A DNA stretch of 64,000 nucleotides from an uncultured bacterium (lineage in GTDB: Bacteria > Patescibacteriota > Minisyncoccia > Phycocordibacterales > CAIZLB01). Under the pieces are notes generated by a model, which saw nothing but the letters and a program-made list of their open reading frames with translations, had not been told where the DNA came from and did no database searches. The stretch spans positions 3,750 to 67,749 of the forward strand of contig CAIZLB010000006.1 of assembly GCA_903933735.1 (NCBI GenBank), written 5' to 3'. A program made the position numbers and the translations under genes. Of the stretch, positions 31,135 through 61,570 are shown in pieces (positions within the stretch are counted from its first letter, which is position 1; each line of letters begins with the position of its first letter).

Positions 31135-31720
31135 TGAAAACAATCAGCCGAAAGTGCTCCTTTTGGAAGCTCCTAAGTACGTTCCAAGGAGTGAGGAAGC
31201 TTCACGCCCCGTAGAGGCAAATAAGGGCATTTCCGAGGCTCCTTCCGACCCCTCGGATGCCCGTAAATACGGGCAAAATACGGGTAATTTAGATAGAGAC
31301 CCTGTCACAGGGCAGTTCCTCCCAGGGAACTCAGGTAAGCCATTGGGAGCCAGACATTTCAGCACAATGTTCAGAGATTACGTCCGTGAGGCTGGTGCCA
31401 TTACCAAGGATGGGCAAAAGGTTGGATTCGACAAGTTGATAGTGAAAAAGATGGTGAGTATGGCAGTGGACGGAAACCTTAAGGCGGCAGGAATGGTACT
31501 CGATCGTGTCGATGGAAAAGTCCCTCAAACATTCGAGGTAAACAAGACTGAGAGAATAGGAATCCTTGTAATGACCCAACAGGAAATCGAAGACCATGAA
31601 TCAATATTCAAACGAAAATATGCAGAACCAAATACCAAAGACAATAATACCTCCAGTGACGGAGCACGGAATGAAGACACTCCGAGAGTCACGGAAGGAA
31701 GTGCGTACGAAACACACTAA
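31112..31720 (+). CDS. putative terminase small subunit
   Basis: Position immediately upstream of large terminase; basic N-terminus; start chosen at ATG 31112 to avoid overlap with upstream gene. Confidence 0.35.
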   Translation: MSMNTKNNENNQPKVLLLEAPKYVPRSEEASRPVEANKGISEAPSDPSDARKYGQNTGNLDRDPVTGQFLPGNSGKPLGARHFSTMFRDYVREAGAITKDGQKVGFDKLIVKKMVSMAVDGNLKAAGMVLDRVDGKVPQTFEVNKTERIGILVMTQQEIEDHESIFKRKYAEPNTKDNNTSSDGARNEDTPRVTEGSAYETH

Positions 31721-33353: not shown

Positions 33354-35369
33354 ATGGCATTAGCCCACTACAAGAAACGAGATGAACTGGCAAAGCAAGC
33401 TCTCAAGGAGATAGATTTTTCATATCGGTATAAGAAAGCTCGAATGACTTCGTGGAATAAGAACGAGGATATGATGAACCCTGACAAGTCCAGTCCATCA
33501 GTCATCTCACCTTACGGAGGATCAACCAATCAGGCAGACACGAGAGCTCAAGTGCCTTTGTACAAGATGCATGGATATGTGCACACAATCCTCTCGAAGA
33601 TCGATAGTCCACTCACATTCAAGTACACCAAAGGTGAAACTGCAGATTTGAAGAAGTCCAAGCTGATGAACTCAATCAAGGATAAAGATGCGAAGATTGG
33701 ACGTTGGAATTTCAAAGACTTAATGGGTAAACGAGACGCAGCAATTTATGGTCGTGCGATTTATCTTTACATGACTCGAAACGATAAGGGTCAGTATCGA
33801 AGCCTTCTCAACCTTATCGATCCTAAAGACTTTCTGATTGATCCAGATGTGGGAGGTTTATGCACCGAAGAAGAAGACGGAAGTGGGGTGGAGAAGGCTG
33901 CATACCTCGGATGGTGGAATACCAAACTCACACGAGCTCAGATCACAAAAGGAATTAAAGATGGAATTTACTACAAGAAAGTTGCTGAAGAATTGATTGC
34001 TGGTGGTACGAATACGAAAGCAACAACCAATCAAGATAACGATAAGGACAACAGAAAGCCTTCAGGTGCTCCCCGTGAGCGATACAAGAACGAGAACCAA
34101 TTTATTTTTTATACATGGATAACCACAGACGAGAATGATGACCGATACTATCTCGTGCTGACACCTTCAGGAGACTGTATCAGGTGTGAGCCTTGGAAGG
34201 ATATTCGAAGAAGTGGAAAGTATCCGATATGGACATGGGCAGCGTTTCCAGACCCTCGAGAGTTCTGGACTCCATCGTATTGCGACTTTGCACGAGGAAT
34301 ATTCCAAGCTCAGGAAAAGAGTATCAATCAGTCTCTCGATAACTCAGAACAGATCAACAGACCTCAGACAGCAGTCAACGTTGACTATGTCCGCAACTTA
34401 GCGCAGGTTCGTTATAGAAAAGACGGTTACATTGAAATTGAAGGAAACGTAGACGTGAACCGAGTGCTCCAGACACGACAGACTCCACCGATTGAAGGTC
34501 CATTCAAGGTGTACGACAAACTCGAGTCCATCGTCGAATCAGAAAGCGGAGTAACAGCTGACGTGAAAGGTACGAGCGATGAAGACACTCTCGGGATTTA
34601 CGAAGGTAACCTCATGCAGGCAGGAGATCGATTCGGACTCCTAAACAAAAGCTATGCTGAAGGCTACTACCGATTTGCAGTACTTCACAAAGAAGGTGTG
34701 ATGCAAGATTTGAAAAAGAAGATGGCAGTCCAGATACTTGGTCCGATGGGACTTGAGATAGAGATGGTAAGTGCTCGAGACCTGAAACCTTATCAGAATG
34801 ACTACGACATCCTCGTAGAATCAAGTCTGGCTGAAGCTCAAAGTAATCTTGCAGACAGCAAGAACAAACTCACGTTCCTTGGAGCTTACAAAGGCGATCA
34901 GACAATCAACCAAAAAGTATTGTTCGAAACCCAAGCAACGATTGCGGGAGTAGATGACGACACAATCAAGAGACTCCTTGATACAAGTGATTACAACGCA
35001 ATCGAAGTCGTAGCTCAAGCAGACGAAGCATTCCAGATAATTCTAGGTGGCGAGACTCCTCCACTTTACAAGGATGCAAACACAGCGTTCCTACAGAGAC
35101 TCCATGACCTGTCTGACAAATACGATCACGAATTGAGTTCTGAACAACATGCGGCAGTATTCTCCTACATCGACAACATAACACCGATTGTAGAGAGGAA
35201 CGCTGCTCGCTCGGTAGTTGCCGAGTCTGCAAAGGCAGGACTTATCAGCGGAGGGGGTCGGATGGTCGATGGAGCCGAACTTAAAGATGCTGAACTTGCT
35301 GCAGGAGAATCAATCCCACCAGGTGACCCAGGTGCGGAGGCAGCTGCAACCGCAGCATTATCAAAATAA
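33354..35369 (+). CDS. putative portal protein
   Basis: 671 aa, directly downstream of terminase; size and position typical. Confidence 0.4.
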   Translation: MALAHYKKRDELAKQALKEIDFSYRYKKARMTSWNKNEDMMNPDKSSPSVISPYGGSTNQADTRAQVPLYKMHGYVHTILSKIDSPLTFKYTKGETADLKKSKLMNSIKDKDAKIGRWNFKDLMGKRDAAIYGRAIYLYMTRNDKGQYRSLLNLIDPKDFLIDPDVGGLCTEEEDGSGVEKAAYLGWWNTKLTRAQITKGIKDGIYYKKVAEELIAGGTNTKATTNQDNDKDNRKPSGAPRERYKNENQFIFYTWITTDENDDRYYLVLTPSGDCIRCEPWKDIRRSGKYPIWTWAAFPDPREFWTPSYCDFARGIFQAQEKSINQSLDNSEQINRPQTAVNVDYVRNLAQVRYRKDGYIEIEGNVDVNRVLQTRQTPPIEGPFKVYDKLESIVESESGVTADVKGTSDEDTLGIYEGNLMQAGDRFGLLNKSYAEGYYRFAVLHKEGVMQDLKKKMAVQILGPMGLEIEMVSARDLKPYQNDYDILVESSLAEAQSNLADSKNKLTFLGAYKGDQTINQKVLFETQATIAGVDDDTIKRLLDTSDYNAIEVVAQADEAFQIILGGETPPLYKDANTAFLQRLHDLSDKYDHELSSEQHAAVFSYIDNITPIVERNAARSVVAESAKAGLISGGGRMVDGAELKDAELAAGESIPPGDPGAEAAATAALSK

Positions 35370-48612: not shown

Positions 48613-49218
48613 ATGAATATATCATTTCAACAAACACCAAATTACTCAGTTGGTCCTACAAAGAAAGCCATTGTGGTTTTGCATTTTACGCTTGGTTCAT
48701 ATGGCGGCGCAGTGAGCTGGCTCTCAAATGCGAATAGACCAAACCGATCCTCTTCACATTTTGTGATTGGTAGAAAGCCTGGTGAAATAGTCCAGCTAGT
48801 AAAAATTACTGACATAGCATGGCATGCAGGAGTAATAAGTAACCCAAACGATAGAGCAAAAAAAGTAATGCTCAAGAATCTGGATGGCTCATGGGTCAAT
48901 CCAAATCAATACACTATAGGAATTGAACTCGCGGCAGGATATGACGTGGATCAGGATGGTGTTGTTGAATCAAACGAAAATGACATAACCGAATGGCAAT
49001 ATGACCAACTTATAGAACTTATAAAATCATTTTCAAACAATCCGGAGACGGCATTCGTACTTGATCCAAAAAATATCATCATCCATGGAGATATAACCGA
49101 CTATAAAGAAAAACCAGAAAATGTACGAAATGAAGTAATAAAAAAACTATTCACTCAGTCGGTCCCAAACAGGGAAGTGATAAAGGCACAAATTATTAAT
49201 CTATTAAACCAATTATAG
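48613..49218 (+). CDS. N-acetylmuramoyl-L-alanine amidase (Amidase_2/PGRP) endolysin
   Basis: SSHFVIGRKPGEIVQLVKITDIAWHAG pattern of Amidase_2. Confidence 0.8.
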   Translation: MNISFQQTPNYSVGPTKKAIVVLHFTLGSYGGAVSWLSNANRPNRSSSHFVIGRKPGEIVQLVKITDIAWHAGVISNPNDRAKKVMLKNLDGSWVNPNQYTIGIELAAGYDVDQDGVVESNENDITEWQYDQLIELIKSFSNNPETAFVLDPKNIIIHGDITDYKEKPENVRNEVIKKLFTQSVPNREVIKAQIINLLNQL

Positions 49219-49220
49219 CT

Positions 49221-49397
49221 ATGGAAATATTAAAATCAGCATCAAAAGTAGTTTTTATTCTGATGGCAGTGGCGACCATTGCTGGGATGTTTGTGGGTAG
49301 AATTGATCCTAAAGATTTTATGATCCTAGCATCAATGGCATTCTCATTTTACTTTGCAAATAAAGGGGAAACGAATGTCCCGTTTGCCGGTAAATAA
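49221..49397 (+). CDS. small membrane protein (58 aa, not in the provided ORF track)
   Basis: ATG 49221; MEILKSASKVVFILMAVATIAGMFVG... one TM; last gene before GC drop. Confidence 0.35.
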   Translation: MEILKSASKVVFILMAVATIAGMFVGRIDPKDFMILASMAFSFYFANKGETNVPFAGK

Positions 49398-49445
49398 ATT
49401 CTCTGTTCAAAACACTAAAAAAAGTGTAGAATTATAGAGTAATTT

Positions 49446-51089
49446 ATGGCTGAAAATAACACTATAATTCCTGAGGAAGCGTATCTACTCGGTCTCATAA
49501 CAGGCCGAGGTCATTTCTTCATGGATAGCTTTTCAATCGCAATTGAATTCTCACACACAAATGAATTTATTGCTGGGATTGCTCATTGCCCAAAATGTGG
49601 GTGGTTAGCAACTGACAATAAAAATGGCGGACTAAAATGTAAAAATCCAGAATGCGGTCACATTCTAGACTCGTCAGTAAAAAAGACATACAATCAACCA
49701 CTTTCTACAGTCGAATCTTTAAAAAATGTGATTATACCTTTTCTAAAGACCGGTATTAATGCTGAATTTGATATTACAGGAAATAAGTCCATGACAATTC
49801 TAGTTATTGATTTAAAAAATGACAAAGACAAATTCAAGGATATAACAAGATTTTTTTCACCGGACACAAGTTTCGATAGATTTCATATTCCGAAAGAATT
49901 AGAGACTGCAACAAAAGAAGCAAAAATAGAATTTGTGAATGGATTACTTGATACATCTGGTTTTGCAAATGCGGGTGGTTGGTTAAATCGTGATGGAAAA
50001 AATGGACACGGAAGAATGAGAGTTTACTATCAAATAGTTAGAAACTGGCATCTCCCCGTAGAAATCGATAACTTCATGCGTTCGCAATTTAATCTCCCAA
50101 TACATACGATAGACTGGGGTCATCCAAATATTCGAGATGGTAATTTAAATGACTTTTATGAGACAAACCCAACGAGTTGGGGTCGTGAACATCAAATAAA
50201 ATTCTTTCCAGAATATTATGGAGATTTTAAATTCCGTATAAGTTCTAAACAGTCAATGTTTGATGAATTAAAAGCTCATAATCTAGGAGTTAAATTTGAT
50301 AATATTGACGACTGGTTTCCACCTTCAAAAATTACCAAAGGGAAACTCAAGGCATACCATCCGGGAGAAAATGATTTAAGAATTCCAGAATCGGCTCGAA
50401 GACATTTTGATGCTTTCTGGCAGATCAATCTTGCAATGGGGTGCAAATATCTTCAAGGATTGCAAAGTAAATCAAAAAATCCTGATCTTTTTGCTATCAC
50501 CGGTGATATAGAGCTAGATGAGGATTTTTCTAAGATTCAGGCTGAATTTGATATTATTAGAAATGAGCTAACGGAAAATGCAACTAATAAAAAAAGGCCA
50601 GAGAAAGCTCCATCTACAAAGAGAAAAACTGAGAAGGAGATGGCTGAGCAGGCAATGTACGAACCATTAACTGTATTTTTTACAGACTATTTGTCAAAAA
50701 AATATAGTGAACCAGCAGATGCTTTTGATACATCAGCGGGAAATCTAAATCTATTTTTGAAAAATAGAAATCGAGAATTACTTGATGTTTTTGATTATTG
50801 TGATAAGTATCGAATTAAACCAGATGTTGTAGGTTTTCTTGAAAAACAAAAAGCTCTAGCCTTCATTGAAGCAAAAATTACACCACTTGATTTGAAAAGT
50901 CTGGGTCAGCTTATGGGTTATTGCTTCGTTGCACAGCCAATAGAAGCTATTCTCATTTCAACAAAAGAACCGTCACTATCCCTTATTAAAGTACTCAAAG
51001 CACGTCCAGATTTACTACAATATGCTGAAGGTCGAATGATTCAGCTTGCTACACTTCAAAATGGAAAAGTTAACTTCATCAATATTTAA
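49446..51089 (+). CDS. candidate restriction endonuclease: LAGLIDADG-like motifs (x2), C4 zinc ribbon, C-terminal PD-(D/E)XK domain
   Basis: YLLGLITGRGHF and EFVNGLLDTSGF; HCPKCGW...CKNPECGH; KPDVVGF...AFIEAKI; convergent with tandem MTases. Confidence 0.45.
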   Translation: MAENNTIIPEEAYLLGLITGRGHFFMDSFSIAIEFSHTNEFIAGIAHCPKCGWLATDNKNGGLKCKNPECGHILDSSVKKTYNQPLSTVESLKNVIIPFLKTGINAEFDITGNKSMTILVIDLKNDKDKFKDITRFFSPDTSFDRFHIPKELETATKEAKIEFVNGLLDTSGFANAGGWLNRDGKNGHGRMRVYYQIVRNWHLPVEIDNFMRSQFNLPIHTIDWGHPNIRDGNLNDFYETNPTSWGREHQIKFFPEYYGDFKFRISSKQSMFDELKAHNLGVKFDNIDDWFPPSKITKGKLKAYHPGENDLRIPESARRHFDAFWQINLAMGCKYLQGLQSKSKNPDLFAITGDIELDEDFSKIQAEFDIIRNELTENATNKKRPEKAPSTKRKTEKEMAEQAMYEPLTVFFTDYLSKKYSEPADAFDTSAGNLNLFLKNRNRELLDVFDYCDKYRIKPDVVGFLEKQKALAFIEAKITPLDLKSLGQLMGYCFVAQPIEAILISTKEPSLSLIKVLKARPDLLQYAEGRMIQLATLQNGKVNFINI

Positions 51090-51597
51090 TTATATGGACA
51101 AAAATATTTTTACAAACAAATTAAAGAATTGGCTAAATAATTTTTTGAATATAAAATTTTCTGAAACACATGAAGTTGTATCTGTTTTAATACCAGAGAC
51201 GAGTCTGGCGAAAATGAATAATGATGCTATTAAACAAATAGCAAATTATTCTACATGGGAATTTAAACCAGATGTACTCGGTATTTTAAAAAATAAGAAA
51301 AATTCTCGTTTAGAATTGGTACTACTCAACAGATCAACATCCGCACTCAGTCTTAAAGAATTGGGTGAGATGAATTGTTACGCCAAACTCACTGGCGCTC
51401 TTTTGGCATTTGTCGCTTCTACAAATGGAGTATCCAATGAAGTAAACATCCTTCTACTTGAGGATAAAATAAGACAGAGAGTCCTTAGCTATGGGGAAGG
51501 ACAAGATATTATTGTCGTTGGTTGGGATGAAAAAAATGACCAAATCAGCGAAGATTCAGTCATTCCTTTCTCAAAAAAAGATTTTATTGTTAACTAA
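51046..51597 (+). CDS. degenerate paralog of the C-terminal PD-(D/E)XK domain of upstream ORF (catalytic E-x-K lost)
   Basis: FKPDVLGILKNKKNSRLELVLLNRS...LKELGEMNCYAKL aligns with IKPDVVGFLEKQKALAFIEAKIT...LKSLGQLMGYCFVA; overlaps upstream ORF by 44 nt. Confidence 0.4.
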   Translation: MLHFKMEKLTSSIFNYMDKNIFTNKLKNWLNNFLNIKFSETHEVVSVLIPETSLAKMNNDAIKQIANYSTWEFKPDVLGILKNKKNSRLELVLLNRSTSALSLKELGEMNCYAKLTGALLAFVASTNGVSNEVNILLLEDKIRQRVLSYGEGQDIIVVGWDEKNDQISEDSVIPFSKKDFIVN

Positions 51598-52403
51598 GCT
51601 CTTTTCCAGTAGACACAAATAAATTCGTGTACCTTATTGAATCTGAATACCCAAGGGTAACCAAGCGTTTTCATATTGTTATATTCTTTCTGTCGGTCCC
51701 ATATAACATACTCTTCAAGTTCAAAACCTATTTCTCGCATTATGCGACTTTGATCTTCGTGCAATGGATAGAATTTATCCTTTTTACGAATATCCATAAC
51801 GACGCAGATACATCGCTTGTTGGGTTTTAGTGTTTTGTAGACCTCAGTATAAACAGTTTTTAGATCTTGGAGAAAAGCCTCGTAGTCGTGAATATTACCA
51901 ATATCATCGTCTGAATCGGAATACTTACGTCCATCTTTCATGTCAGCAGTTCTCTTCATGGTTAAAATATCCCAATATGGCGGTGATGTAACCACTAGGT
52001 CTACTGAATTTGGTTTGACGTGCTTTAAAATGTTTCTTGAATCCTCGCAATAGATCTTGGGTTCAAATCTTTTTACTTTTTTATCAAAATTTTCATCAGC
52101 TTCATGTTTTGTAACTCTACCTTTGGCAATCTCGCAGTAGTCCCTATTTAAATCAAAGCCGATTCCTTTCTTTCCAAGGTTGTGAGCTGCTTTTAATGTT
52201 GAACCAATACCCAGAAAAGGATCGAGAATGACCTCACCAGAATCTTTTGTGTAGATTTTAATGAGTTTCTCGACCAATTGCTGTGGAAACATTGCGGGGT
52301 GCTTCAACTTCCTCTCCTCGGATGTTTTACCAACGTCTCTCCAAATACTAAAGGAGTTTTGTAGCCACTCTTTGCCATTTAAGTTGTTCATTTTTTCAGC
52401 CAT
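51594..52403 (-). CDS. beta-class amino (N6A/N4C) DNA methyltransferase
   Basis: AdoMet motif DPFLGIGST before catalytic SPPY (beta-class order), as in DpnA-like MTases. Confidence 0.8.
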   Translation of the reverse strand: MAEKMNNLNGKEWLQNSFSIWRDVGKTSEERKLKHPAMFPQQLVEKLIKIYTKDSGEVILDPFLGIGSTLKAAHNLGKKGIGFDLNRDYCEIAKGRVTKHEADENFDKKVKRFEPKIYCEDSRNILKHVKPNSVDLVVTSPPYWDILTMKRTADMKDGRKYSDSDDDIGNIHDYEAFLQDLKTVYTEVYKTLKPNKRCICVVMDIRKKDKFYPLHEDQSRIMREIGFELEEYVIWDRQKEYNNMKTLGYPWVFRFNKVHEFICVYWKRA

Positions 52404-52404
52404 A

Positions 52405-53424
52405 TTATTTTTTTACAGTTAGTAGGAACAAATGCTCCTTAGTTATAATTTTCGACCCATCTTGATTAATTGCGCGGTATCGTTTGTGTTCTTTTGTGTA
52501 TTCCTTAACTTCACCGCGAGTTGAAAGAATTTTTTTGAGCACAGGAATCGGTATTATTCCTTCGTCGTTGTAACTCAATAAAATATATTTTGCTTTTGCT
52601 TTTGTTACTAAATCTAGAAGCGCGTCAGCAGCCTTTCGAGAAATTGAATAATCCGATTTTTGATCCTCATAAGGCCTCATTCCCGCGTTTCCATATATCT
52701 CAGGAATTTTCCTAAACCAACCTTCCGCCACCAATTCTAGAAAAAAATAATTTGATGCAAATTGCCTAGCGTTATATGGGGGATCTAGGTATAGAATATC
52801 TACTTTGTGCATCCCAACGAGATCATTTGCATCGGCTCGAAAGGCCCTGTTTTCTTTTTTGTTATCAAACACTTCTCCATGTTCTAAAGTGATATTTTTT
52901 AAAGCCCGTCTGTCCCAGCTTTTCAAAAATGCAGCGTAGGTACCTGTTACATTTGCAACAAGACTGATTGCGTTTATGAGACTTGCAATAAGATAATAAT
53001 ATTCTGTTTCGGAAATTAATTTACTATTCTTCCAGTTCTCGATATTTTCTCTAATCACATCAACCTTTTTAGCATTTTCAACTGAAAGATACTGACGTTT
53101 GTTTCCGTTAAATGGTGAGTAATTTTTTGTAATGAATCCAGCCTTACCCTTAAGTTTATTTAGATGATCAATAATATCATCCGACAATCCTAACTTTTTA
53201 AATTTAGGGATTTTAGCCGTTTCAATATTTGTTCGAGCCAGCGAGTATGCGAACTCTAAAAAATCGTTCGAATAAACTGTATAGCCAAGTTTTTTAAAAT
53301 GTTGACCAACTGCAGTTGTCCCACTAAATATATCGAAAAAAATTGCCCCTTTTTTTACGGGTAAAGTTGTAACGACATCCTCAATGTAATCAAGCAGTTT
53401 GGTTTTGCAACCGTAATATCTCAT
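52405..53424 (-). CDS. D12-class (Dam-like) N6-adenine DNA methyltransferase
   Basis: N-terminal MRYYGCKTKLL (RYxGxK), FFDIFSGT, catalytic DPPY. Confidence 0.85.
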   Translation of the reverse strand: MRYYGCKTKLLDYIEDVVTTLPVKKGAIFFDIFSGTTAVGQHFKKLGYTVYSNDFLEFAYSLARTNIETAKIPKFKKLGLSDDIIDHLNKLKGKAGFITKNYSPFNGNKRQYLSVENAKKVDVIRENIENWKNSKLISETEYYYLIASLINAISLVANVTGTYAAFLKSWDRRALKNITLEHGEVFDNKKENRAFRADANDLVGMHKVDILYLDPPYNARQFASNYFFLELVAEGWFRKIPEIYGNAGMRPYEDQKSDYSISRKAADALLDLVTKAKAKYILLSYNDEGIIPIPVLKKILSTRGEVKEYTKEHKRYRAINQDGSKIITKEHLFLLTVKK

Positions 53425-53540: not shown

Positions 53541-55817
53541 ATGCCTATTACCAAATTAAAAGACATAACAAATATTGATGCTTTCGACACCTTTCAATGG
53601 GGTGGGAGTGATCTAAAAAAATACAACTTAATTTATGGGTGGAATGGATGTGGTAAAACAACCATGTCGCGCGTGTTAAGTTTTGTTGAGAAGAAGGAAA
53701 TTGATATGCCGGAGTTTTCTTCAATGCAATTTCAGGTTCAGACTAATACCGGCGTAACCAAGGAATCAGACCTGCTCACTAGTAATATAAGTATTAAAGT
53801 TTTTAATGAGGATTTTATCCGAGAAAATCTTGAGTTCCACGAGTCAAAAGCAAAGAAAATTCTCATTGTCGGAAAAGATAATATAGATGCACAAGCTGAA
53901 ATAACTTCTCTAGAGGCGAAAGTTACCACGGCAAGAGAAGAGCATGATCGGCTAGAAGTAGATAGAGGAAAAATTAGCTCTATAGAAAATATTTTTACTG
54001 AAGCTGCCCGTGAAGTAATCAAGCAATTTACTAATACCCCCCTCGGTAGTGGAACATACTATGGTCGAAGCTACAACCGTACAAAAATAGAACCTTTTGT
54101 TACTGACGGCAAGATCACTCCTGAGAATCTAGACTCATTGATTATAGAAAAGGTAGAAGATATAGATAGCAAGAGGGACATAATTAAAAATCAAAAACAA
54201 AAAATTGGTTCTGAATTAAAAGGGGTTAATGATTTTTCTGTATTATTTGAAAATGCGAATAATCTCTTGGATACATTTGTAGATATCGAAATAATCGAAG
54301 GGCTCGACTCTGACAAAGAGCTCAGAGATTGGACTGAACAAGGATATCACATACATAAAAACCGAGATCTCGAATCGTGTCAATTTTGTAAAAAAACTCT
54401 CGATAAAGGATTCCTAGAAAACCTTGGTAAATTTTTTACTGAGGAGCTCGAAAAAGCAAAAAAGGGAATTGATGACATTATTACAAAAATAGACGTAGCA
54501 GAAAACAAAGCTGAGGCAGTATTTATTGAACCAAGTCGACTATTTCCTGATTTGGCAAACGAATATCTTGCGACAAAATCAAGCGTTGAAGATAAAGGCA
54601 GAGAGCTACGTGGTTCAATTACAGCACTGATCGTTGCCCTCAATGAAAAGCGTGAGAATCTACATGATCGAAAAAAAACTATTTCAAAAATTCCATATCC
54701 TGAGAATGTTATTAGAGAGTTCGGTGCACTTATTGAAAAGCTTAATGCTATAGTCAATAAACATGATGAGAGGATGGATAAAATAGATGAAGCGGCAAAA
54801 GCAATTGAGATCCATACCATTGCGTCGGTTTTGAAGTCAAAAGAGTATTTCAAAAAGAAAAAAGACCTCGCCGATCTTGATGCAAAGCTTGGTCCATTAA
54901 AAACAGAAATATACACACTAAATGGTGAAATAAAAAAGAAACGTGGCGGTATCCTAAATGCTTCTATCGCAATCGATGCAATAAATGACGTTCTCAAAGA
55001 TTTCTTCGGTGAATCACAAATATATCTAGAGCTTACAGATCCAAATGCTCCAGAGGTGGGTTATATTGTGAAGCGCCGTGGTAAGAATGCAAAGCACCTA
55101 AGCGAGGGTGAGAAAAGTGTCATAGCATTGATTTATTTTCTTGCAAAACTCGAAGAAGACGGCTTTAAAAAGGAGAGCGGAATAATTGTGGTAGATGATC
55201 CTGTAGACAGTCAAGATGAAATATTTTTGTTCCGCACTTTCGGCCTCATAAAAAGACAGCTTATAAAAGCCGAGCAATTGATAGTACTTACACACAACTT
55301 CGCCTTTTTTAATCTGGTCCGAGATTGGATGAACGACACCGACGATGCCGAACTTTATCTTATGACCTGCAATCGCACAGGGACGACACATGAAGCAAAA
55401 ATTGAGCCCCTGCCAGATATTATCCGCAAATACAAAACCGAGTATCAATTCCTATTTTTTCAACTCTATAACTTCAATAAAAATGGTGCAGGAATAGATG
55501 CTCCACTTATACCAAATGTCGCAAGAAAAGCACTTGAATATTTCGCAGGTTTTAAGTGGTCGTGTGGTACAGATCGAGCTTTTGCTCAAATGGTACACGA
55601 TAAATATATCACTGATCCTAACCTCAAAAACAAAGGAGTGGCAGACTTCATCGTAAAGTTTCTGCACGAATACTCACACGGACTAGACTTCACTCGGCCG
55701 ATCACCGCTGCAACACTTGAAGCAAAAGATGTGGCAAAAAACGTCATAGAATTCATACATATGTCCGATGACGATCATTACAAAAAATTAAAGGTTCTAT
55801 GTGACCCTTCGGCCTAA
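53541..55817 (+). CDS. AAA_13-like ABC-type ATPase with long coiled-coil insert
   Basis: N-terminal YNLIYGWNGCGKTT Walker A; signature LSEGEKSVIAL; Walker B IIVVDDPVDSQDE; H-loop LTHN; about 450-aa coiled-coil between. Confidence 0.7.
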   Translation: MPITKLKDITNIDAFDTFQWGGSDLKKYNLIYGWNGCGKTTMSRVLSFVEKKEIDMPEFSSMQFQVQTNTGVTKESDLLTSNISIKVFNEDFIRENLEFHESKAKKILIVGKDNIDAQAEITSLEAKVTTAREEHDRLEVDRGKISSIENIFTEAAREVIKQFTNTPLGSGTYYGRSYNRTKIEPFVTDGKITPENLDSLIIEKVEDIDSKRDIIKNQKQKIGSELKGVNDFSVLFENANNLLDTFVDIEIIEGLDSDKELRDWTEQGYHIHKNRDLESCQFCKKTLDKGFLENLGKFFTEELEKAKKGIDDIITKIDVAENKAEAVFIEPSRLFPDLANEYLATKSSVEDKGRELRGSITALIVALNEKRENLHDRKKTISKIPYPENVIREFGALIEKLNAIVNKHDERMDKIDEAAKAIEIHTIASVLKSKEYFKKKKDLADLDAKLGPLKTEIYTLNGEIKKKRGGILNASIAIDAINDVLKDFFGESQIYLELTDPNAPEVGYIVKRRGKNAKHLSEGEKSVIALIYFLAKLEEDGFKKESGIIVVDDPVDSQDEIFLFRTFGLIKRQLIKAEQLIVLTHNFAFFNLVRDWMNDTDDAELYLMTCNRTGTTHEAKIEPLPDIIRKYKTEYQFLFFQLYNFNKNGAGIDAPLIPNVARKALEYFAGFKWSCGTDRAFAQMVHDKYITDPNLKNKGVADFIVKFLHEYSHGLDFTRPITAATLEAKDVAKNVIEFIHMSDDDHYKKLKVLCDPSA

Positions 55818-57306
55818 CCATATGACGCTATCAAAAACTGATTACATACTTTATAGAGAATGTCCAAAGAATGCTTGGATGAAAATTCACAAGCCGGATA
55901 TTTACTATGCAACTGAACTTTCCGAATTCGAAAAGCATATCATTGAAACCGGTAACGAGGTTGAGCTTGTGGCCCGTCAGCTCTTTCCAAGCGGTGTGCT
56001 TATAGAAGGCAGAGATGAGAAAGCTCGACTTGATACTCTCGATCTTGTCGCTAAGAAGGGTCAAACTATTTTCCAGCCCATCTTCGTTAAAGATGGATTT
56101 CTCGCAGCGGTCGATGTGCTCAAATACGATCCAGAAAATGACGGTTATCAAATATATGAGATCAAGGCTACGAATGAAGTGGATGAGAAAGTTCATCTTT
56201 ATGACCTCGCATTTCAAGTAGCTTTACTACACAAGTGCGGGGTAAGAGTGACAGGTATCAACCTTCTACATCTCAATAAGGAGTACGTGAGGAATGGGGA
56301 ACTAGATATCATAAAGCTTTTTTCAATAGACGAAGTGAGCGAGGTAATAGCAGACATGATCTCTGTAGTGTGGGATGAAATGAATATCGCTTTAAAATAT
56401 CTGTCTTCTGAGAATGAGCCCAATGGTCCTTGCTGTTGCGTTTACAAAGGAAGAAGTGGTCATTGCTCTACATTCAAACATAACAACCCTCATATTCCAG
56501 AGTATTCGGTACACGACTTAAACCGAATAGGTAGCAGCAAAAAGAAACTGATGGAACTTATCGATAGTAACGTCTTTCATATTCATGAGGCGGATGGAAG
56601 GATTGTTTTTAGTGAGTCACAACAAAACCAAATTGATGCTCATGTAAATGATAGAGTGCTGATAAAGAAAGATATGATCGCAGAGGAATTTAGTAAGTTG
56701 GAGTATCCGCTTTATTTTTTAGATTACGAAACATTTCCATCTGCTGTACCATTGTTCGACGGCTACTCTTCGTATAATCAAATCCCATTTCAATATTCAC
56801 TTCAAGTGGTTCAAACGCCGAATGCAGAGCCACAGAGTTTTGATTTTATTTATACAGAATCAGATGATCCCTGCCCGGCATTAGCAAAATCTCTACAATC
56901 TCATATTGGTCCTAAAGGGAGTGTAATTGTTTGGTATAAACCTTTTGAAAAATCAAGAAATACAGAAATGGGAATAAGACTTCCAGAGTATAAGATCTTC
57001 TTTGAAGGAATAAATGAGAGAATCTTTGATCTCATGGAAATATTTTCAAAGCAATACTACGTTCACAAGGAGTTCAAGGGTAGCAGCTCGATTAAAAAAG
57101 TTCTCCCCGTTCTTGTACCTGAGCTTTCATATAAAGAGCTTTTGATCAAAGAGGGTGGCACAGCATCTCAGGCATGGAAAAAAATAGTAGACGGAAAATA
57201 TTCAAAAGATGAAGCGACTGAGCTCATCAATGCCCTTAAGATTTACTGTAATCTAGACACTTATGCTATGTATGCAATCTTCAAGCGTTTGGTGGATATA
57301 ATATAA
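55801..57306 (+). CDS. Cas4/RecB-like PD-(D/E)XK nuclease with Cys4 Fe-S cluster and C-terminal extension domain
   Basis: YRECPKNAWMK N-terminal Cys; ...YEIKAT E-x-K motif; CCCVYKGRSGHC cluster; 17-nt overlap with upstream ATPase gene. Confidence 0.6.
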   Translation: MTLRPNHMTLSKTDYILYRECPKNAWMKIHKPDIYYATELSEFEKHIIETGNEVELVARQLFPSGVLIEGRDEKARLDTLDLVAKKGQTIFQPIFVKDGFLAAVDVLKYDPENDGYQIYEIKATNEVDEKVHLYDLAFQVALLHKCGVRVTGINLLHLNKEYVRNGELDIIKLFSIDEVSEVIADMISVVWDEMNIALKYLSSENEPNGPCCCVYKGRSGHCSTFKHNNPHIPEYSVHDLNRIGSSKKKLMELIDSNVFHIHEADGRIVFSESQQNQIDAHVNDRVLIKKDMIAEEFSKLEYPLYFLDYETFPSAVPLFDGYSSYNQIPFQYSLQVVQTPNAEPQSFDFIYTESDDPCPALAKSLQSHIGPKGSVIVWYKPFEKSRNTEMGIRLPEYKIFFEGINERIFDLMEIFSKQYYVHKEFKGSSSIKKVLPVLVPELSYKELLIKEGGTASQAWKKIVDGKYSKDEATELINALKIYCNLDTYAMYAIFKRLVDII

Positions 57307-57497: not shown

Positions 57498-58367
57498 ATG
57501 AATCATTCAGAGAAAAAATCCCTCGAATTTGTACACAAACACCGACGTAAGTTTTATGCCGTCGGTATTTTGATACTCTTTTTTGTAATGAGTATTACTA
57601 GCGAGGCTGTCTACGATTCCTTCAAGCCCGATACAGTGGCATCCGAATATTCAGAAAGCGAGGATACTTCCTCATGCAATGTTTTAGGAATCAATCTCCA
57701 TGGCGACCTTTATACTTATGTACCAGAAAGCAATGACGATGAGTTAATGAGCAACAAAGATGTTGTGGGAAGCGAAGAAATAATGGGCTCGCTTGAAACA
57801 GCCGAAAATGACGAGAATATCAAAGCTGTTATCGTGGAAGTGGATTCCCTGGGAGGTTATCCTGTCGCGGGCGAAGAAGTGGCCAATGCAATAAAAGCAT
57901 CTACCAAGCCTGTCGTGGCCTTTATCCGCCAGAGCGGAACGTCGGCAGCATATTGGGCAATCACCACGGCCGATCAGATATTCGCATCAAAGAATTCTGA
58001 TGTTGGCAGCATTGGAGTCACAACATCCTATCTCGAAAATGTTTCCAAAAATGAAAAAGAGGGCCTTAAATACGTTCAACTCAGTGCAGGAAAATACAAG
58101 GATGCCGGAAGTCCGGACAAGTCACTGACTGATGAAGAAAAAGCACTCATCATCCGAGATCTGAAAATCGTCCATGAAAACTTTATTCAGGATGTCTCAA
58201 CCAATAGAAATATTCCGATTGAGAAAATTCGAGCAATCGCTGACGGTTCTTCAATCCTCGGAGCGCGCGCGAAAGAACTCGGCTTAATCGATAGTATCGG
58301 TGGATACGCTGAAGTGAAGAACTACATCGAAGAAAAGATCGGAGAGAAACCTGAGGTTTGCTGGTAG
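57498..58367 (+). CDS. sppA: signal peptide peptidase SppA (S49 family)
   Basis: TM anchor; ClpP/crotonase-fold motifs VDSLGGYPVAGEEV...SGTSAAYWAI...DVGSIGV. Confidence 0.8.
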   Translation: MNHSEKKSLEFVHKHRRKFYAVGILILFFVMSITSEAVYDSFKPDTVASEYSESEDTSSCNVLGINLHGDLYTYVPESNDDELMSNKDVVGSEEIMGSLETAENDENIKAVIVEVDSLGGYPVAGEEVANAIKASTKPVVAFIRQSGTSAAYWAITTADQIFASKNSDVGSIGVTTSYLENVSKNEKEGLKYVQLSAGKYKDAGSPDKSLTDEEKALIIRDLKIVHENFIQDVSTNRNIPIEKIRAIADGSSILGARAKELGLIDSIGGYAEVKNYIEEKIGEKPEVCW

Positions 58368-58410
58368 AGTCCCTCTAGACTTAAAAATCTATTCTCGGTA
58401 TCTTTGTACT

Positions 58411-58722
58411 ATGGAAGAAAATGACATGGATGCAGTCCGTAAGGCTGCCGAACACATTCAAATACCTTTCAACCGGTATGAAATATTCAACCGGCTTTCT
58501 CAACTTTCCCAGCCCAAGGCTAAAATGAAACAGGCTCTGAAAGAGAGGATGAAATTACTTGCCGCCGCCTATGTATCACTGGCAACTTTTATAGATGATG
58601 ATGACGTGGAGTTTATCTTTGAAAACAAAAACAGCCAGAGAGCAAAGGATGTAGCTGCAAAGGTTTGTGAAGATTTAGATATAGCACAAGAAGAAATGAG
58701 GAATTTCAAGCTAATGGACTAG
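58411..58722 (+). CDS. hypothetical protein
   Basis: 103-aa ORF. Confidence 0.4.
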   Translation: MEENDMDAVRKAAEHIQIPFNRYEIFNRLSQLSQPKAKMKQALKERMKLLAAAYVSLATFIDDDDVEFIFENKNSQRAKDVAAKVCEDLDIAQEEMRNFKLMD

Positions 58723-58743
58723 TCAATTTTTAATTAATACTTA

Positions 58744-58802
58744 TTAAAGTTTTAATAAAGAAAAAGTAAAAACTCCCTAGATTCACTCAAAAGTGGTATA
58801 AT
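58744..58802 (+). promoter_or_regulatory. promoter with extended -10 TGGTATAAT; near-leaderless transcript for yerC-like gene; contains 25-nt repeat
   Basis: TGGTATAAT at 58794-58802, ATG at 58812; repeat TTAAAGTTTTAATAAAGAAAAAGTA. Confidence 0.4.
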
Positions 58803-58811
58803 GAGATTAAT

Positions 58812-59135
58812 ATGGACGATCAAGAAAAAAATAACATTTGGAAAGAGATAGAACAAAAATCACCTGACTTAATCCAGGCGTTCTTGTCATTGAAAAACGA
58901 GGATGAACTGAAAGCATTCTTCCGCGACCTTATGAGTGAGCGTGACTTGCGAGAATTCGCAATGCGATGGGAGGTAGCAAAAATGCTTGATTCGGGTATG
59001 TCATTCACTCAGATCCAAGAAAAGTGGGCTGGTGATGAGATGGTTTCTCCAAACACGATCGCAAAAATTAATCGATGGTTGAAAGAGGGTTGTGGAGGAT
59101 ACAAAATGTTGATTGATCGTATGAAGAATAATTAA
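58812..59135 (+). CDS. YerC/YecD-family TrpR-like DNA-binding protein
   Basis: About 100 aa, pattern ...LSLKNEDELKAFFRDLMSERDLREFAMRWEVAKML... typical of YerC/YecD. Confidence 0.65.
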   Translation: MDDQEKNNIWKEIEQKSPDLIQAFLSLKNEDELKAFFRDLMSERDLREFAMRWEVAKMLDSGMSFTQIQEKWAGDEMVSPNTIAKINRWLKEGCGGYKMLIDRMKNN

Positions 59136-60625: not shown

Positions 60626-61570
60626 GTGGGCTTTTTGGTTGGAAAAAACCCTATGCTATTCAAAGACGCTATTGATGAATTTACAAACTGGCGCACGTTT
60701 AAGATAAACGGCACTACTACCAGAGGTAATGACAAAGACCTCCGGCTCTTTAGTGTGTTTCTACGTAACCCTCACATTGAAGACATCACGCTCAACGACG
60801 TGATGGAATATTTGAATTTAATGAAAGAAATGGGATGGGCTCACAACAGCTTCGTCTCAAAATGCATGGCATACAAAAAGTTTTTTGAATTTTGTAATTT
60901 AAGAGGGTGGAGAGTGCTGAATGAAAATTTGATACCAATTCCGCAAAAGGAATACAAGATTCCACGTGTTGCAACAAAAGAAGAATTTAAAAAATTGATT
61001 GATGTTATTCCTAAAAACACAGACCCAAGAAATGTACGAAATACAGCAATAATCAGACTGCTCTGGGATACTGGCGCACGAAATGGAGAAATCTTAAATC
61101 TCGACATGGATGACCTAGATCTAGTCAACAATAAAGCTTTGATTAAAACTGAGAAGGCAAAAACTCGACGACCTCTTAGAGAAATATTTTGGACAAAAGA
61201 AACCAGTGAAGCGATCAGTAAATGGATTGAGAGGCGAGAGCGATTCAAGCAAGGAAACGCACTGCGTGATCCAAACGCACTCTTTATTTCTATACACAAC
61301 TCAGGAACAAACAAGACTCGTGGTTTACGATTCAAACCAAGTGGGGTATGTGAGATGCTTCGTGGATACTCAAACAAGGCAGGTCTTCAGCGACCACTGA
61401 ATGCTCACTCAATGAGACATTACATGGGGCGAAACATTATCGAAAAGGGTGGCTCAAACTCAGATGTGACAAACATCCTAGGTCACTCTTGCATTGAAAG
61501 CTCGATGATTTATACCATGATGTATGGAAAGCAGGCTGAAAAACGATATCGAAAATTTAGAGGACAATAA
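60626..61570 (+). CDS. tyrosine recombinase/integrase (Xer-like); likely start ATG 60653
   Basis: N-terminal SAM-like core-binding domain; catalytic R (DTGARNGE), HxxR (AHSMRHYMG), Tyr (IYTMMY). Confidence 0.85.
   Translation: MGFLVGKNPMLFKDAIDEFTNWRTFKINGTTTRGNDKDLRLFSVFLRNPHIEDITLNDVMEYLNLMKEMGWAHNSFVSKCMAYKKFFEFCNLRGWRVLNENLIPIPQKEYKIPRVATKEEFKKLIDVIPKNTDPRNVRNTAIIRLLWDTGARNGEILNLDMDDLDLVNNKALIKTEKAKTRRPLREIFWTKETSEAISKWIERRERFKQGNALRDPNALFISIHNSGTNKTRGLRFKPSGVCEMLRGYSNKAGLQRPLNAHSMRHYMGRNIIEKGGSNSDVTNILGHSCIESSMIYTMMYGKQAEKRYRKFRGQ

Follow-up and report, generated by a model that had tools for sequence, protein, structure and literature searches.

A putative heteromeric restriction-modification cassette joining an acid-less LAGLIDADG fold to a PD-(D/E)XK nuclease domain

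A prophage in a Candidatus Paceibacteria genome carries a four-gene restriction-modification cassette, which we consider likely to encode a heteromeric Type II system acting at an asymmetric site (Type IIS/IIT; 'class III' in the sense of BspD6I/BstNBI). What is new is a disabled LAGLIDADG homing-endonuclease fold joined to a classical restriction nuclease domain and accompanied by a small protein that is paralogous to this domain but lacks the usual catalytic residues. The cassette occupies positions 49446-53424 of the window, the 64,000-nucleotide stretch of DNA analysed, and sits as cargo in the prophage, with lysis genes on one side and an integrase on the other. An open reading frame check recovered all four frames of the original prediction at their coordinates; with one start corrected (see below), they encode a 547-aa and a 167-aa protein on the plus strand and two convergent amino-methyltransferases on the minus strand. 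The features are as follows.

49446..51089, plus strand: putative large endonuclease subunit, 547 aa, with LAGLIDADG-fold module, zinc ribbon, helical extension, linker and PD-(D/E)XK domain
49470..50291, plus strand: LAGLIDADG-fold module of the 547-aa protein (motif 1 at 49482-49517, motif 2 at 49929-49964)
49575..49682, plus strand: C4 zinc ribbon (C48, C51, C65, C70), an insertion in the first LAGLIDADG domain between its beta2 and alpha2
50292..50630, plus strand: helical extension, residues 283-380 (invariant H305, E308, H320, C333), then linker 381-395
50631..51086, plus strand: putative PD-(D/E)XK cleavage domain, residues 396-547 (D460...E475-x-K477...Q488xxxY492 encoded at 50823-50921)
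51094..51597, plus strand: putative small subunit, 167 aa, cleavage-domain paralog (N79-R-S81 replaces E-x-K, E92xxxY96 replaces QxxxY)
51594..52403, minus strand: circularly permuted N6_N4-family amino-methyltransferase, 269 aa (PF01555, 2.4e-35, two stretches in swapped order)
52405..53424, minus strand: D12-class N6-adenine methyltransferase, 339 aa (PF02086, 1.3e-33)

The nuclease proteins have no naming match in Pfam, NCBIfam, PADLOC, PHROG or PDB sequences, and a literature search found no description of either. They are organised like the heterodimeric Type IIS/IIT enzymes, BspD6I among them, in which the large subunit recognises the site and cuts one strand, the small subunit cuts the other, and usually two methyltransferases serve one strand each (PMC4081073; PMC3017599). 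The locus supplies a large subunit with a recognition part and a PD-(D/E)XK site, as well as two methyltransferases of different families; judged by its canonical motif, the small subunit does not supply the second active site.

Synteny ties the nuclease genes to the methyltransferases. In 25/25 distinct loci of the fused type the large gene is followed by the small gene and then by the permuted methyltransferase; these loci come from Patescibacteria, Nanoarchaeota, Thermococci, Proteobacteria, Actinomycetota, Firestonebacteria and others. All 20 loci with a long enough contig also encode a second methyltransferase (D12, gamma-class or MT-A70), the linkage expected of restriction-modification. 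The analogy with heterodimeric restriction enzymes drawn in the original prediction fits this conserved four-gene arrangement. A sister 'split' architecture encodes a ~310-aa LAGLIDADG-like protein and a free ~160-aa nuclease with its motifs intact; D...ExK...QxxxY is complete in the free nuclease of 6/6 split loci and in ~40 free-standing representatives of ~160 aa. The ancestor was probably such a split system, in which the methyltransferase(s) accompanied a LAGLIDADG-like subunit of ~310 aa and an active nuclease of ~160 aa that was still free. One nuclease copy would then have fused to the recognition subunit, while the other remained downstream and degenerated.

Of the two methyltransferases, the permuted enzyme is the conserved one of the system. 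It occurs in 25/25 distinct fused loci and 5/6 split loci, with 66-77% identity across phyla in the former and 45-51% in the latter. Its motifs (DPFLGIGST...SPPY) had been read as beta-class, an assignment that the motif order corrects: motif X/I (residues ~35-69) comes first and motif IV SPPY (~140) later. Beta-class structures (the DpnA homolog 5hek, M.MboIIA, M.PvuII) align only through their C-terminal motif-I part, the DpnA homolog covering motif I alone (1.4e-9), and the protein is a circularly permuted N6_N4 enzyme. The 339-aa enzyme (MRYYGCK...DPPY) does belong to the D12 family, as proposed, and matches PADLOC MTase_II PDLC03287 at 2.6e-94 over the N-terminal half of the 646-position profile. 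The Dam likeness also proposed did not stand: the protein reaches 17.7 bits against the Dam model TIGR00571 (cut-off 114.85) and has no PDB sequence match at E<=1e-3; its sequence is not Dam/DpnM-like. Its counterpart in other loci is a gamma-class N6_Mtase/TaqI_C enzyme or MT-A70, and it is the second, replaceable methyltransferase. The description of the pair as 'DpnII-like' thus captures a resemblance between families that is otherwise superficial, the D12 member being swapped in relatives and its partner being permuted rather than DpnA-like.

The C-terminal domain of the large protein carries the PD-(D/E)XK core that the original prediction had placed there. Within KPDVVGF...IEAKI, D460, E475 and K477 are retained in 54/54 homologs, and Q488 and Y492 are also invariant. 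The fold matches restriction enzymes, and motif and fold together define a PD-(D/E)XK domain with a RecB/Cas4-type QxxxY. The linker that precedes it (381-395) is flexible and basic, with a net charge of +3.5, pLDDT 60-70 and a mean column identity of 0.30.

The small gene begins at ATG 51094, 4 nt past the stop of the large gene. The original prediction had described a 183-aa frame overlapping the large gene, but the 52 homologs of the small protein, each 162-167 aa bar one 128-aa fragment, begin at the equivalent of ATG 51094, so that the longer frame, starting at TTG, is an artefact of ORF calling and the true protein has 167 aa. Its homology to the large C-terminal domain was borne out by BLASTP (E=1e-7) and by profile-profile comparison with hhalign (probability 98.3%, E=2e-14, 133 columns), a similarity well above chance that identifies it, from sequence, as a paralog of the cleavage domain. 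The predicted loss of E-x-K also recurs in every fused-type relative. The fold is present and the motif is not: E475 and K477 of the large protein align with N79 and S81, and Q488 of its QxxxY with E92. Nearly all fused-type small subunits have N-x-S/T for E-x-K and ExxxY for QxxxY, and none has E-x-K or QxxxY; the Lys and Gln are gone from every one and Asn replaces Glu in all but L032. The PD aspartate is missing as well in L022 (PN) and L032 (K). In a set of 36 small subunits with identities as low as 37%, D60, N79, K88, E89, E92 and Y96 show little or no variation (D60 is kept in most), and the near-invariance of the substituted residues argues for a kept function of that pocket.

The label 'catalytically degenerate' applies to the canonical motif and not to activity. 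PD-(D/E)XK enzymes such as EcoRII and BspD6I are known to recruit a catalytic D/E or K from elsewhere (PMC4081073), so a missing linear E-x-K is no proof of inactivity. It is possible, if somewhat doubtful, that the small subunit of the same system is active through a rearranged site in which D60 acts, in place of E-x-K, with E92 and K88, both from the helix after beta3. Two active sites, one for each strand, would make the complex a classical Type IIT heterodimer like BspD6I, BtsI and BsrDI. The conservation just described is consistent with such a site, as is the location of E92 exactly at the position of Q488. Relocated catalytic residues are documented in the superfamily (PMC4081073), the PD-Xn-E-X12-QR site of BsrDI and BtsI is non-canonical (PMC1950550), and NgoMIV-type enzymes are among the top structural matches. 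Against this, both the acid and the lysine of E-x-K have been lost, not one alone, and the PD aspartate is absent too from L022 and L032. Moreover, the ~40 free-standing relatives and the fused domain all retain the canonical set, which confines the change to the partner of a fused active domain. We favour, with some caution, a non-catalytic small subunit that serves as an obligatory structural or positioning partner.

The N-terminal part of the large protein was predicted to contain two LAGLIDADG-like motifs, and both hold in proper alignment: YLLGLITGRGHF at residues 13-24 and EFVNGLLDTSGF at residues 162-173. The positions of the catalytic acids are taken by R21 and S171; position 21 is R/K and position 171 A/S/T in 54/54 members, with no D or E at either among 46 superfamily members. 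Pfam LAGLIDADG_1/2/3 and WhiA profiles gave no match at E<=0.1. The scaffold is a double LAGLIDADG fold from which both catalytic acids are gone, as in WhiA. The original prediction had staked itself on a homing-endonuclease fold in the N-domain and on a protein outside known non-nuclease families; the fold was found, no match to such a family was, and the interpretation as a whole is supported. The inserted C4 zinc ribbon was likewise confirmed, with C48, C51, C65 and C70 invariant in the homolog alignment. The ribbon has a net charge of +3.4 and a match to PF14952 zf-tcix below threshold (2.3e-5); it is found only in the fused architecture and is absent from the ~310-aa split-type relatives.

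The two LAGLIDADG domains differ in charge and conservation. Domain 2 has a mean column identity of 0.76-0.86 and a first hairpin of net charge +3.7, and domain 1 has neutral to acidic sheets. Conservation within the scaffold is highest at H226, N228, E248, H249, K268, E308 and H320. These residues recur across architectures and, instead of reading bases, could bind metal, take part in catalysis or lie at a protein interface. LAGLIDADG enzymes usually have sites of 14-40 bp, and a restriction site matched by methyltransferases is expected to be short; this normal site length counts against a LAGLIDADG module as a restriction-site reader.

We propose that the acid-less scaffold is the sequence-recognition module, with the basic, highly conserved second half-domain and the basic zinc ribbon as the parts likely to contact DNA. 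It is unlikely that the module is instead a protein scaffold, a role suggested for the domain in WhiA, or a second, new catalytic centre built from invariant His/Glu/Lys, with recognition left to the zinc ribbon and helical extension or to the nuclease domains. The invariance of H226, E248, H249, K268 and H320 throughout the superfamily, in three architectures, would suit that reading, as would the non-basic sheet of the first half-domain and the argument that the LAGLIDADG domain of WhiA possibly does not bind DNA at all (PMC3384342). Yet the split-type relatives keep the module without the zinc ribbon, the hairpin of the second half-domain is strongly basic, and wherever the module occurs in the fused and split architectures a canonical nuclease goes with it (the 991-1299-aa proteins lie outside this comparison). 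Since the partner methyltransferase is an ortholog in every case, the conservation of the module could reflect a shared specificity.

In the proposed mechanism, cutting would be performed by the PD-(D/E)XK domain of the large subunit, and each methyltransferase would guard one strand of the asymmetric site. The small protein and the tethered cleavage domain would form a dimer-like cleavage module, as with the BspD6I small subunit. If the small subunit is non-catalytic, each complex has a single active site of the canonical kind and would either nick one strand or depend on a second complex or a second binding event for a double-strand break. There is a slim chance that the superfamily-invariant cluster of H226, E248, H249, K268, E308 and H320 is a new catalytic or metal centre on the homing-endonuclease scaffold that cuts the second strand. 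The large subunit would then combine two chemistries, and the 'dead' small paralog would serve as a clamp with a structural role alone. In a milder version, the complex may be a restriction enzyme that naturally nicks one particular strand, the active/inactive heterodimer determining which.

It is quite improbable that the small subunit is a regulator rather than a component of the cutting machinery. In that role it would be a dead decoy on the dimerisation face of the tethered cleavage domain and would restrain the nuclease until the complex sits at an unmethylated site, standing in for a C-protein during establishment, for instance. FokI-type cleavage domains cut only as dimers (PMC1950550), most loci preserve the cassette without an HTH controller gene, and the small gene is apparently tightly coupled to the large one. 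The idea is purely inferential, however, and has no precedent in restriction systems, and the free nuclease of the split architecture, with intact motifs in the same gene order, suggests a structural rather than an inhibitory ancestry.

A free-standing homing or selfish nuclease that lies beside the methyltransferases by chance, or a DpnII-type GATC system, is scarcely credible: the LAGLIDADG fold and the dpnM/dpnA-like pairing of D12 and N6_N4 families recall these, but every member lacks both catalytic acids, there is no intron or intein context, methyltransferase synteny is strict across phyla (25/25 distinct loci), and DpnII membership fails on the D12 enzyme (Dam model, PDB sequences, replacement in relatives), on the permutation relative to DpnA, on an unrelated nuclease with no DpnB-like gene, as had been predicted for the convergent partner, and on the convergent gene order.

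Among known proteins, WhiA/DUF199 shares the acid-less LAGLIDADG fold, and in T. maritima WhiA the two acid positions are occupied by Arg and Gly (PMC3384342). WhiA regulates transcription and ends in an HTH, whereas the 547-aa protein has no HTH and no WhiA profile match, ends in a nuclease and belongs to a restriction-modification cassette, and membership of that family was rejected. Single-chain LAGLIDADG homing endonucleases (I-DmoI, I-Tsp061I, PI-PfuI, PI-SceI) carry the catalytic Asp/Glu that is gone from both motifs here; the present protein is not intron- or intein-borne, has an inserted zinc ribbon and has passed cleavage to a PD-(D/E)XK domain, and it fails as a member of that class on acids, Pfam profiles and homing context. 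R.BspD6I and R.BstNBI have no detectable sequence similarity to the proteins described here; the recognition domain of BspD6I is FokI-like rather than of LAGLIDADG fold, and it has a catalytically active small subunit, responsible for cutting the second strand, whereas here the canonical motif is lost. In FokI and PaqCI, which have other recognition folds, identical active domains homodimerise or oligomerise, in place of the dedicated degenerate paralog that partners the active domain here. XPF-ERCC1 and Mus81-Eme1 are also obligate heterodimers, in which a catalytic nuclease domain of restriction fold is paired with a paralog lacking catalytic residues; they are eukaryotic/archaeal repair enzymes, structure-specific rather than sequence-specific, and unrelated to this family in sequence and context. 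Finally, engineered chimeras (inactivated I-SceI with the FokI cleavage domain; megaTAL/I-TevI fusions) use a disabled or binding-only LAGLIDADG scaffold to deliver a separate nuclease; they are artificial and have long sites, whereas the family described here is natural, widespread and coupled to methyltransferases.

Two plus-strand nuclease genes and two convergent minus-strand methyltransferase genes make up the cassette at 49446-53424. Both methyltransferases have hits to numerous Type II methyltransferase profiles in PADLOC.

Genes of the cassette
49446-51089, + strand: large subunit, 547-aa ORF
start ATG 51094, + strand: small subunit, directly downstream of the large gene, start taken from homologs
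51594-52403, - strand: permuted methyltransferase, 269 aa, PF01555 (N6_N4_Mtase) 2.4e-35
52405-53424, - strand: D12 methyltransferase, 339 aa, PF02086 (D12 class) 1.3e-33

A search of 5.8 billion proteins yielded 360 matches to the large subunit. Among the best 120 of these, homologs are ~540-560 aa long apart from a few truncated entries, and named entries are 'hypothetical', bar one misnamed for its zinc ribbon. Searches of Pfam, NCBIfam, PADLOC and PHROGs with the large and small proteins gave only one sub-threshold zinc-ribbon match, and PDB sequences searched with the single proteins and with family profiles returned only noise. The original prediction described two LAGLIDADG-like motifs, a zinc ribbon and a PD-(D/E)XK core, and all were found in the 547-aa ORF as YLLGLITGRGHF and EFVNGLLDTSGF, a CxxC...CxxxxC cluster and DVVGF...IEAK...GQLMGY, respectively. 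Alignment of 54 family members with identities down to 44% revealed invariant C48, C51, C65 and C70, invariant D460, E475, K477, Q488 and Y492, and a dense conserved block at residues 177-258 that includes TIDWGHPNIRD and REHQxKFFPEYY. An AlphaFold2 model built from this alignment was confident (mean pLDDT 90, pTM 0.72), with residues 381-395 as its sole weak stretch.

Regions of the large-subunit model, from its secondary structure
residues 41-83: zinc ribbon, a beta-rich insertion in the first unit
residues 283-380: helical region
between the helical region and the alpha/beta domain: linker
residues 396-547: alpha/beta domain

Structure comparison and Foldseek, an independent method, both ranked LAGLIDADG enzymes first, which bears out the predicted LAGLIDADG fold. 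The top Foldseek matches had probabilities of 0.99-1.00, and the TM-score normalised to I-DmoI was ~0.5.

Structural matches of the large-subunit model, with scores
I-Tsp061I: 13.7 (180 of 204 residues aligned)
PI-PfuI: 13.5
TliVMA intein endonuclease: 13.4
PI-SceI: 13.2
E-DreI: 12.6
WhiA: 12.3 and 11.2
I-DmoI: 11.8
NgoMIV, PD-(D/E)XK: 9.2
PaqCI, PD-(D/E)XK: 9.1
NucS, PD-(D/E)XK: 9.0
FokI, PD-(D/E)XK: 8.2
N.BspD6I, PD-(D/E)XK: 8.1
BspD6I small subunit, PD-(D/E)XK: 7.4

The metal-binding acid of LAGLIDADG enzymes is the penultimate motif residue, as in D20/21 and E117 of I-DmoI (PMC3384342). At these two positions the large subunit has R21 and S171. Position 21 is Arg in 53 of 54 family members and Lys in one, position 171 is Ala, Ser or Thr, and none of 46 members of the wider superfamily carries Asp or Glu at either. 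Judged from these residues, the scaffold appears to be catalytically disabled. WhiA from T. maritima, with Arg and Gly at the two acid positions (PMC3384342), is likewise a domesticated, acid-less LAGLIDADG scaffold; a Pfam search detected no HMM-level relationship of the large subunit to WhiA or to Pfam LAGLIDADG families. Domain 2 is the best-conserved part of the large subunit (mean column identity 0.76-0.86). Because its first hairpin and the inserted zinc ribbon are also basic (net charges of +3.7 and +3.4), while the domain 1 sheets are neutral to acidic, we infer that DNA would be read mainly by the second half-domain and the zinc ribbon. Such reading would correspond to roughly one LAGLIDADG half-site and may fit a methyltransferase-sized target better than a full 20-bp homing site.

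The small subunit had been predicted as a 183-aa ORF overlapping the large gene from a TTG start. This gene call was wrong, and the ORF was rejected: the 52 homologs, 162-167 aa save one 128-aa fragment, start at positions equivalent to ATG 51094, supporting a conserved 167-aa gene. This ATG lies 4 nt past the TAA of the large gene, a spacing that points to an operon. Paralogy with the large C-terminal domain was confirmed by BLASTP (E=1e-7) and by hhalign of large-subunit residues 403-539 against small-subunit residues 5-146 (probability 98.3%, E 2e-14), and the structure of the small subunit was predicted very confidently (pLDDT 95.5). Loss of the E-x-K residues likewise proved correct, with E475, K477 and Q488 of the large subunit aligned to N79, S81 and E92.

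To place the cassette among its relatives, loci were gathered by exact-protein look-up and by scanning one genome for each species, and all their ORFs were scored with HMMs built from our alignments. The order of large gene, small gene and convergent permuted methyltransferase was observed in 25/25 distinct fused-type loci, in which LAGLIDADG-fold module and nuclease domain form one protein. A second methyltransferase comes next in all 20 loci whose contig continues, and its family varies: D12 in the window and most Patescibacteria, a ~510-540-aa gamma-class N6_Mtase/TaqI_C enzyme in Nanoarchaeota, Thermococci, Firestonebacteria and others, and MT-A70 in Polynucleobacter. Hosts include Paceibacteria, Saccharibacteria, Kaiserbacteria, Howlettbacteria, Pseudobdellovibrionaceae, Gammaproteobacteria, Actinomycetota, Gastranaerophilales, Flavobacteriales, Pelagibacteraceae, Nanoarchaeota and Thermococci. 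One carrier, Polynucleobacter sp. IMCC30063 (GCA_021395235.1), is to judge by its name probably a cultured isolate and not a MAG. Strict synteny across these hosts, together with integrases or recombinases that often adjoin the loci, marks a restriction-modification cassette that is mobile. The synteny also rules out chance juxtaposition of nuclease and methyltransferases and, with the missing catalytic acids, a homing endonuclease or selfish element.

The 269-aa methyltransferase had been read as a beta-class enzyme. Because motif X/I lies at its N-terminus, ahead of motif IV SPPY by about 75 residues, and beta-class structures (DpnA homolog, M.MboIIA, M.PvuII) align to it only via the C-terminal motif-I part, it is instead a circularly permuted member of the N6_N4 family. 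For this type PADLOC has a co-linear Type II methyltransferase profile, PDLC03363. Orthologs from fused loci share 66-77% identity across phyla, and the nearly invariant C-terminal third is a putative target-recognition region; the accompanying nuclease is only ~48-62% identical (loci L001, L003, L006 and L008-L011). The D12 enzyme stayed below the cut-off of the Dam model (17.7 against 114.85 bits) and matched no PDB sequence at E<=1e-3. It matched generic Type II methyltransferase profiles only; the best was a 646-position PADLOC profile, of which it covers the N-terminal half and which we take to resemble Type IIS methyltransferases with two fused domains, such as M.FokI. Among related loci, moreover, the D12 partner is freely swapped for other m6A methyltransferase families. 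Thus, of the DpnII-like pair originally predicted, the tandem of a D12 and an N6_N4 enzyme stands as the sole likeness to DpnII, whereas the DpnII/Dam reading was rejected on the Dam score, the missing PDB match, the permutation and the exchange of the D12 partner.

A profile search run exhaustively over 1.84 billion representatives yielded 467 matches at E<=1e-3, among which three kinds of relative stood out. Proteins of ~290-320 aa match only the LAGLIDADG-like module and helical extension, retaining the acid-less motifs and the WGHPNIRD and REHQ blocks without zinc ribbon or nuclease domain. About 40 free-standing ~160-aa proteins match the nuclease domain, and all carry D...ExK...QxxxY. 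Finally, four proteins of 991-1299 aa (P0229, P0230, P0231, P0233) have the module at the C-terminus, preceded by ~800-1100 residues without Pfam, NCBIfam or PADLOC match, and constitute a third architecture of the superfamily. Next to one such protein, in L012, lies a gene that starts like the permuted methyltransferase. Sequence and profile searches with the split-type and ~1000-aa relatives gave no named match.

Split loci, those of the ~290-320-aa proteins and a sister architecture of the fused type, follow a consistent layout on one strand, namely a D12 or gamma methyltransferase, the permuted methyltransferase, the ~310-aa module and the ~160-aa nuclease with active motifs; their proteins include P0200, P0208 and P0209. 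The full layout is present in L038, L039 and L040, and the D12 or gamma methyltransferase lies upstream in 4/6 split loci (L010, L011, L038, L039, L040, L042). L010 starts at the permuted methyltransferase, no second methyltransferase was detected in L011, and L042 is a degraded locus without the permuted enzyme. Hosts include Pirellulales, Phycisphaerae and Anaerolineaceae, and the permuted methyltransferase is 45-51% identical to that of the window. In a chimeric 353-aa protein, P0303, the motif X/I part from the N-terminus of the permuted methyltransferase runs into the second half of the module; it resembles what a deletion would leave of a split-type locus more than a working fusion. Where the nuclease subunit is free its catalytic motifs are intact, and where the nuclease is fused E-x-K and QxxxY are both missing from every free copy downstream, a correlation that was complete in the sample examined. 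In the simplest history, the nuclease gene would have been duplicated, with one copy fusing to the recognition subunit while the other degenerated.

These patterns bear on the role of the small subunit, which we moderately favor as a non-catalytic structural partner, in which case the outcome would be a nick in one strand, or a double-strand break that takes two complexes. Both E and K of E-x-K are absent, the change occurs only where the active domain is fused, and the PD aspartate is not kept universally, being replaced in the fused-type small subunits of L022 (PN) and L032 (K). A small subunit active through a rearranged site seems distinctly less probable, even though the replacement residues are strongly constrained: N79, K88, E89, E92, Y96 and D60 are invariant among 36 aligned small subunits, and a single helical turn separates E92 from K88 on the helix equivalent to that bearing Q488 in the active domain. 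PD-(D/E)XK enzymes can also recruit catalytic residues from neighboring elements (PMC4081073). A regulatory decoy is quite improbable.

A further residue set, H226, N228, E248, H249, K268, H305, E308, H320 and C333 (window ~50121-50444), is invariant in the family and nearly so across all three architectures. Such conservation is unusual in that the DNA-binding surface of LAGLIDADG proteins is normally hypervariable. The set could form a structural metal site that anchors the helical extension on domain 2, serve as a common DNA contact or act as a catalytic centre, although we assign a low probability to its invariant His/Glu/Lys cluster being a catalytic or metal centre of the module.

In the window, the cassette (GC 0.34-0.37) follows a phage block of higher GC.

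Neighboring features in the window
~26000-49400: prophage, higher-GC block (0.42-0.49) with phage genes
28110-29012 and 29806-31134, + strand: two further prophage DNA methyltransferases, no adjacent nuclease
31596-33299: terminase large subunit, upstream of the cassette
33354-35369: portal, upstream of the cassette
between portal and cassette, prophage block: LysM protein
48613-49218: amidase, prophage, upstream of the cassette
49222-49398: 58-aa membrane ORF, prophage block, upstream of the cassette
53541-57306, + strand, first gene: AAA_13 ATPase, 758 aa, PF13166 3e-110, PADLOC candidate system PDC-S06 1.7e-140
53541-57306, + strand, second gene: DUF2779 protein, 501 aa, N-terminus weakly like Cas4-type PD-(D/E)XK
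within 57498-59135, + strand: S49/NfeD-type peptidase, 289 aa, between defence genes and integrase
within 57498-59135, + strand: Trp-repressor-like protein, 107 aa, between defence genes and integrase
60626-61570: tyrosine integrase, downstream of the cassette

Remaining unannotated ORFs of the prophage block are probably structural genes, and the 64-kb window contains no tRNA gene. One of the two extra methyltransferases matches phrog_116/363 and the other fuses a ParB-like N-terminal domain to an N6_N4-type methyltransferase (phrog_498, 2e-130); both are probably phage anti-restriction enzymes. Downstream of the cassette, the AAA_13/PDC-S06, DUF2779, S49 peptidase, Trp-repressor-like and integrase genes follow in that order. 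The AAA_13 ATPase is weakly similar to PrrC/AbiLi, its ORF overlaps that of the DUF2779 protein by 17 nt, and the pair, probably a second defence module, adjoins the cassette here and follows it in L004 and L005; the order of the peptidase and Trp-repressor-like genes is also kept in L004. The layout is repeated in the closest contig, 99% identical, from a MAG of Candidatus Paceibacteria JTS-AC154. Given these neighbors and the repeated layout, the restriction-modification system is prophage cargo within a small defence island, and because the closest contig is of Paceibacteria origin, the prophage block would belong to a CPR bacterium.

Overall, the logic of the cassette is that of known restriction-modification systems, and its endonuclease belongs to an undescribed superfamily. 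Curated profile libraries (Pfam, NCBIfam, PADLOC, PHROGs) name none of these nuclease proteins, and a full-text literature search of incomplete coverage turned up no restriction system described as having a LAGLIDADG fold. Host-side relatives of homing endonucleases include restriction enzymes for GIY-YIG, HNH and PD-(D/E)XK, and only WhiA, maturases and HO for LAGLIDADG (PMC3384342); the term LAGLIDADG does not occur in a 2014 survey of Type II enzymes (PMC4081073). The cassette would fill this gap, the other three folds being already common to homing and restriction enzymes. The superfamily is widespread and uncatalogued: its 467 representatives (E<=1e-3) fall into three architectures and occur in many phyla of both Bacteria and Archaea. 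Its constant theme is a disabled LAGLIDADG scaffold partnered with a methyltransferase and a PD-(D/E)XK nuclease. It adds a defence system missed by Pfam, NCBIfam and PADLOC annotation, especially among CPR bacteria and DPANN archaea, and could be a source of new specificities for restriction or nicking. The clean series from free active nuclease subunit to fused active domain with degenerate partner bears on the origin of heterodimeric Type IIS enzymes and strand-specific nickases.

Among known systems, engineered meganuclease-nuclease fusions find a natural parallel in the fused protein. In class III heterodimeric Type IIS/IIT enzymes, site recognition and cleavage of one strand fall to the large subunit, the non-specific small subunit is homologous to the catalytic domain, and there are usually two methyltransferases, one per strand of the asymmetric site (PMC4081073; PMC3017599; PMC1950550). 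The cassette is organised alike, with large and small nuclease subunits and two methyltransferases. Because of this match, it is probably a class III-like Type IIS/IIT system in which a disabled LAGLIDADG scaffold replaces the usual recognition domain.
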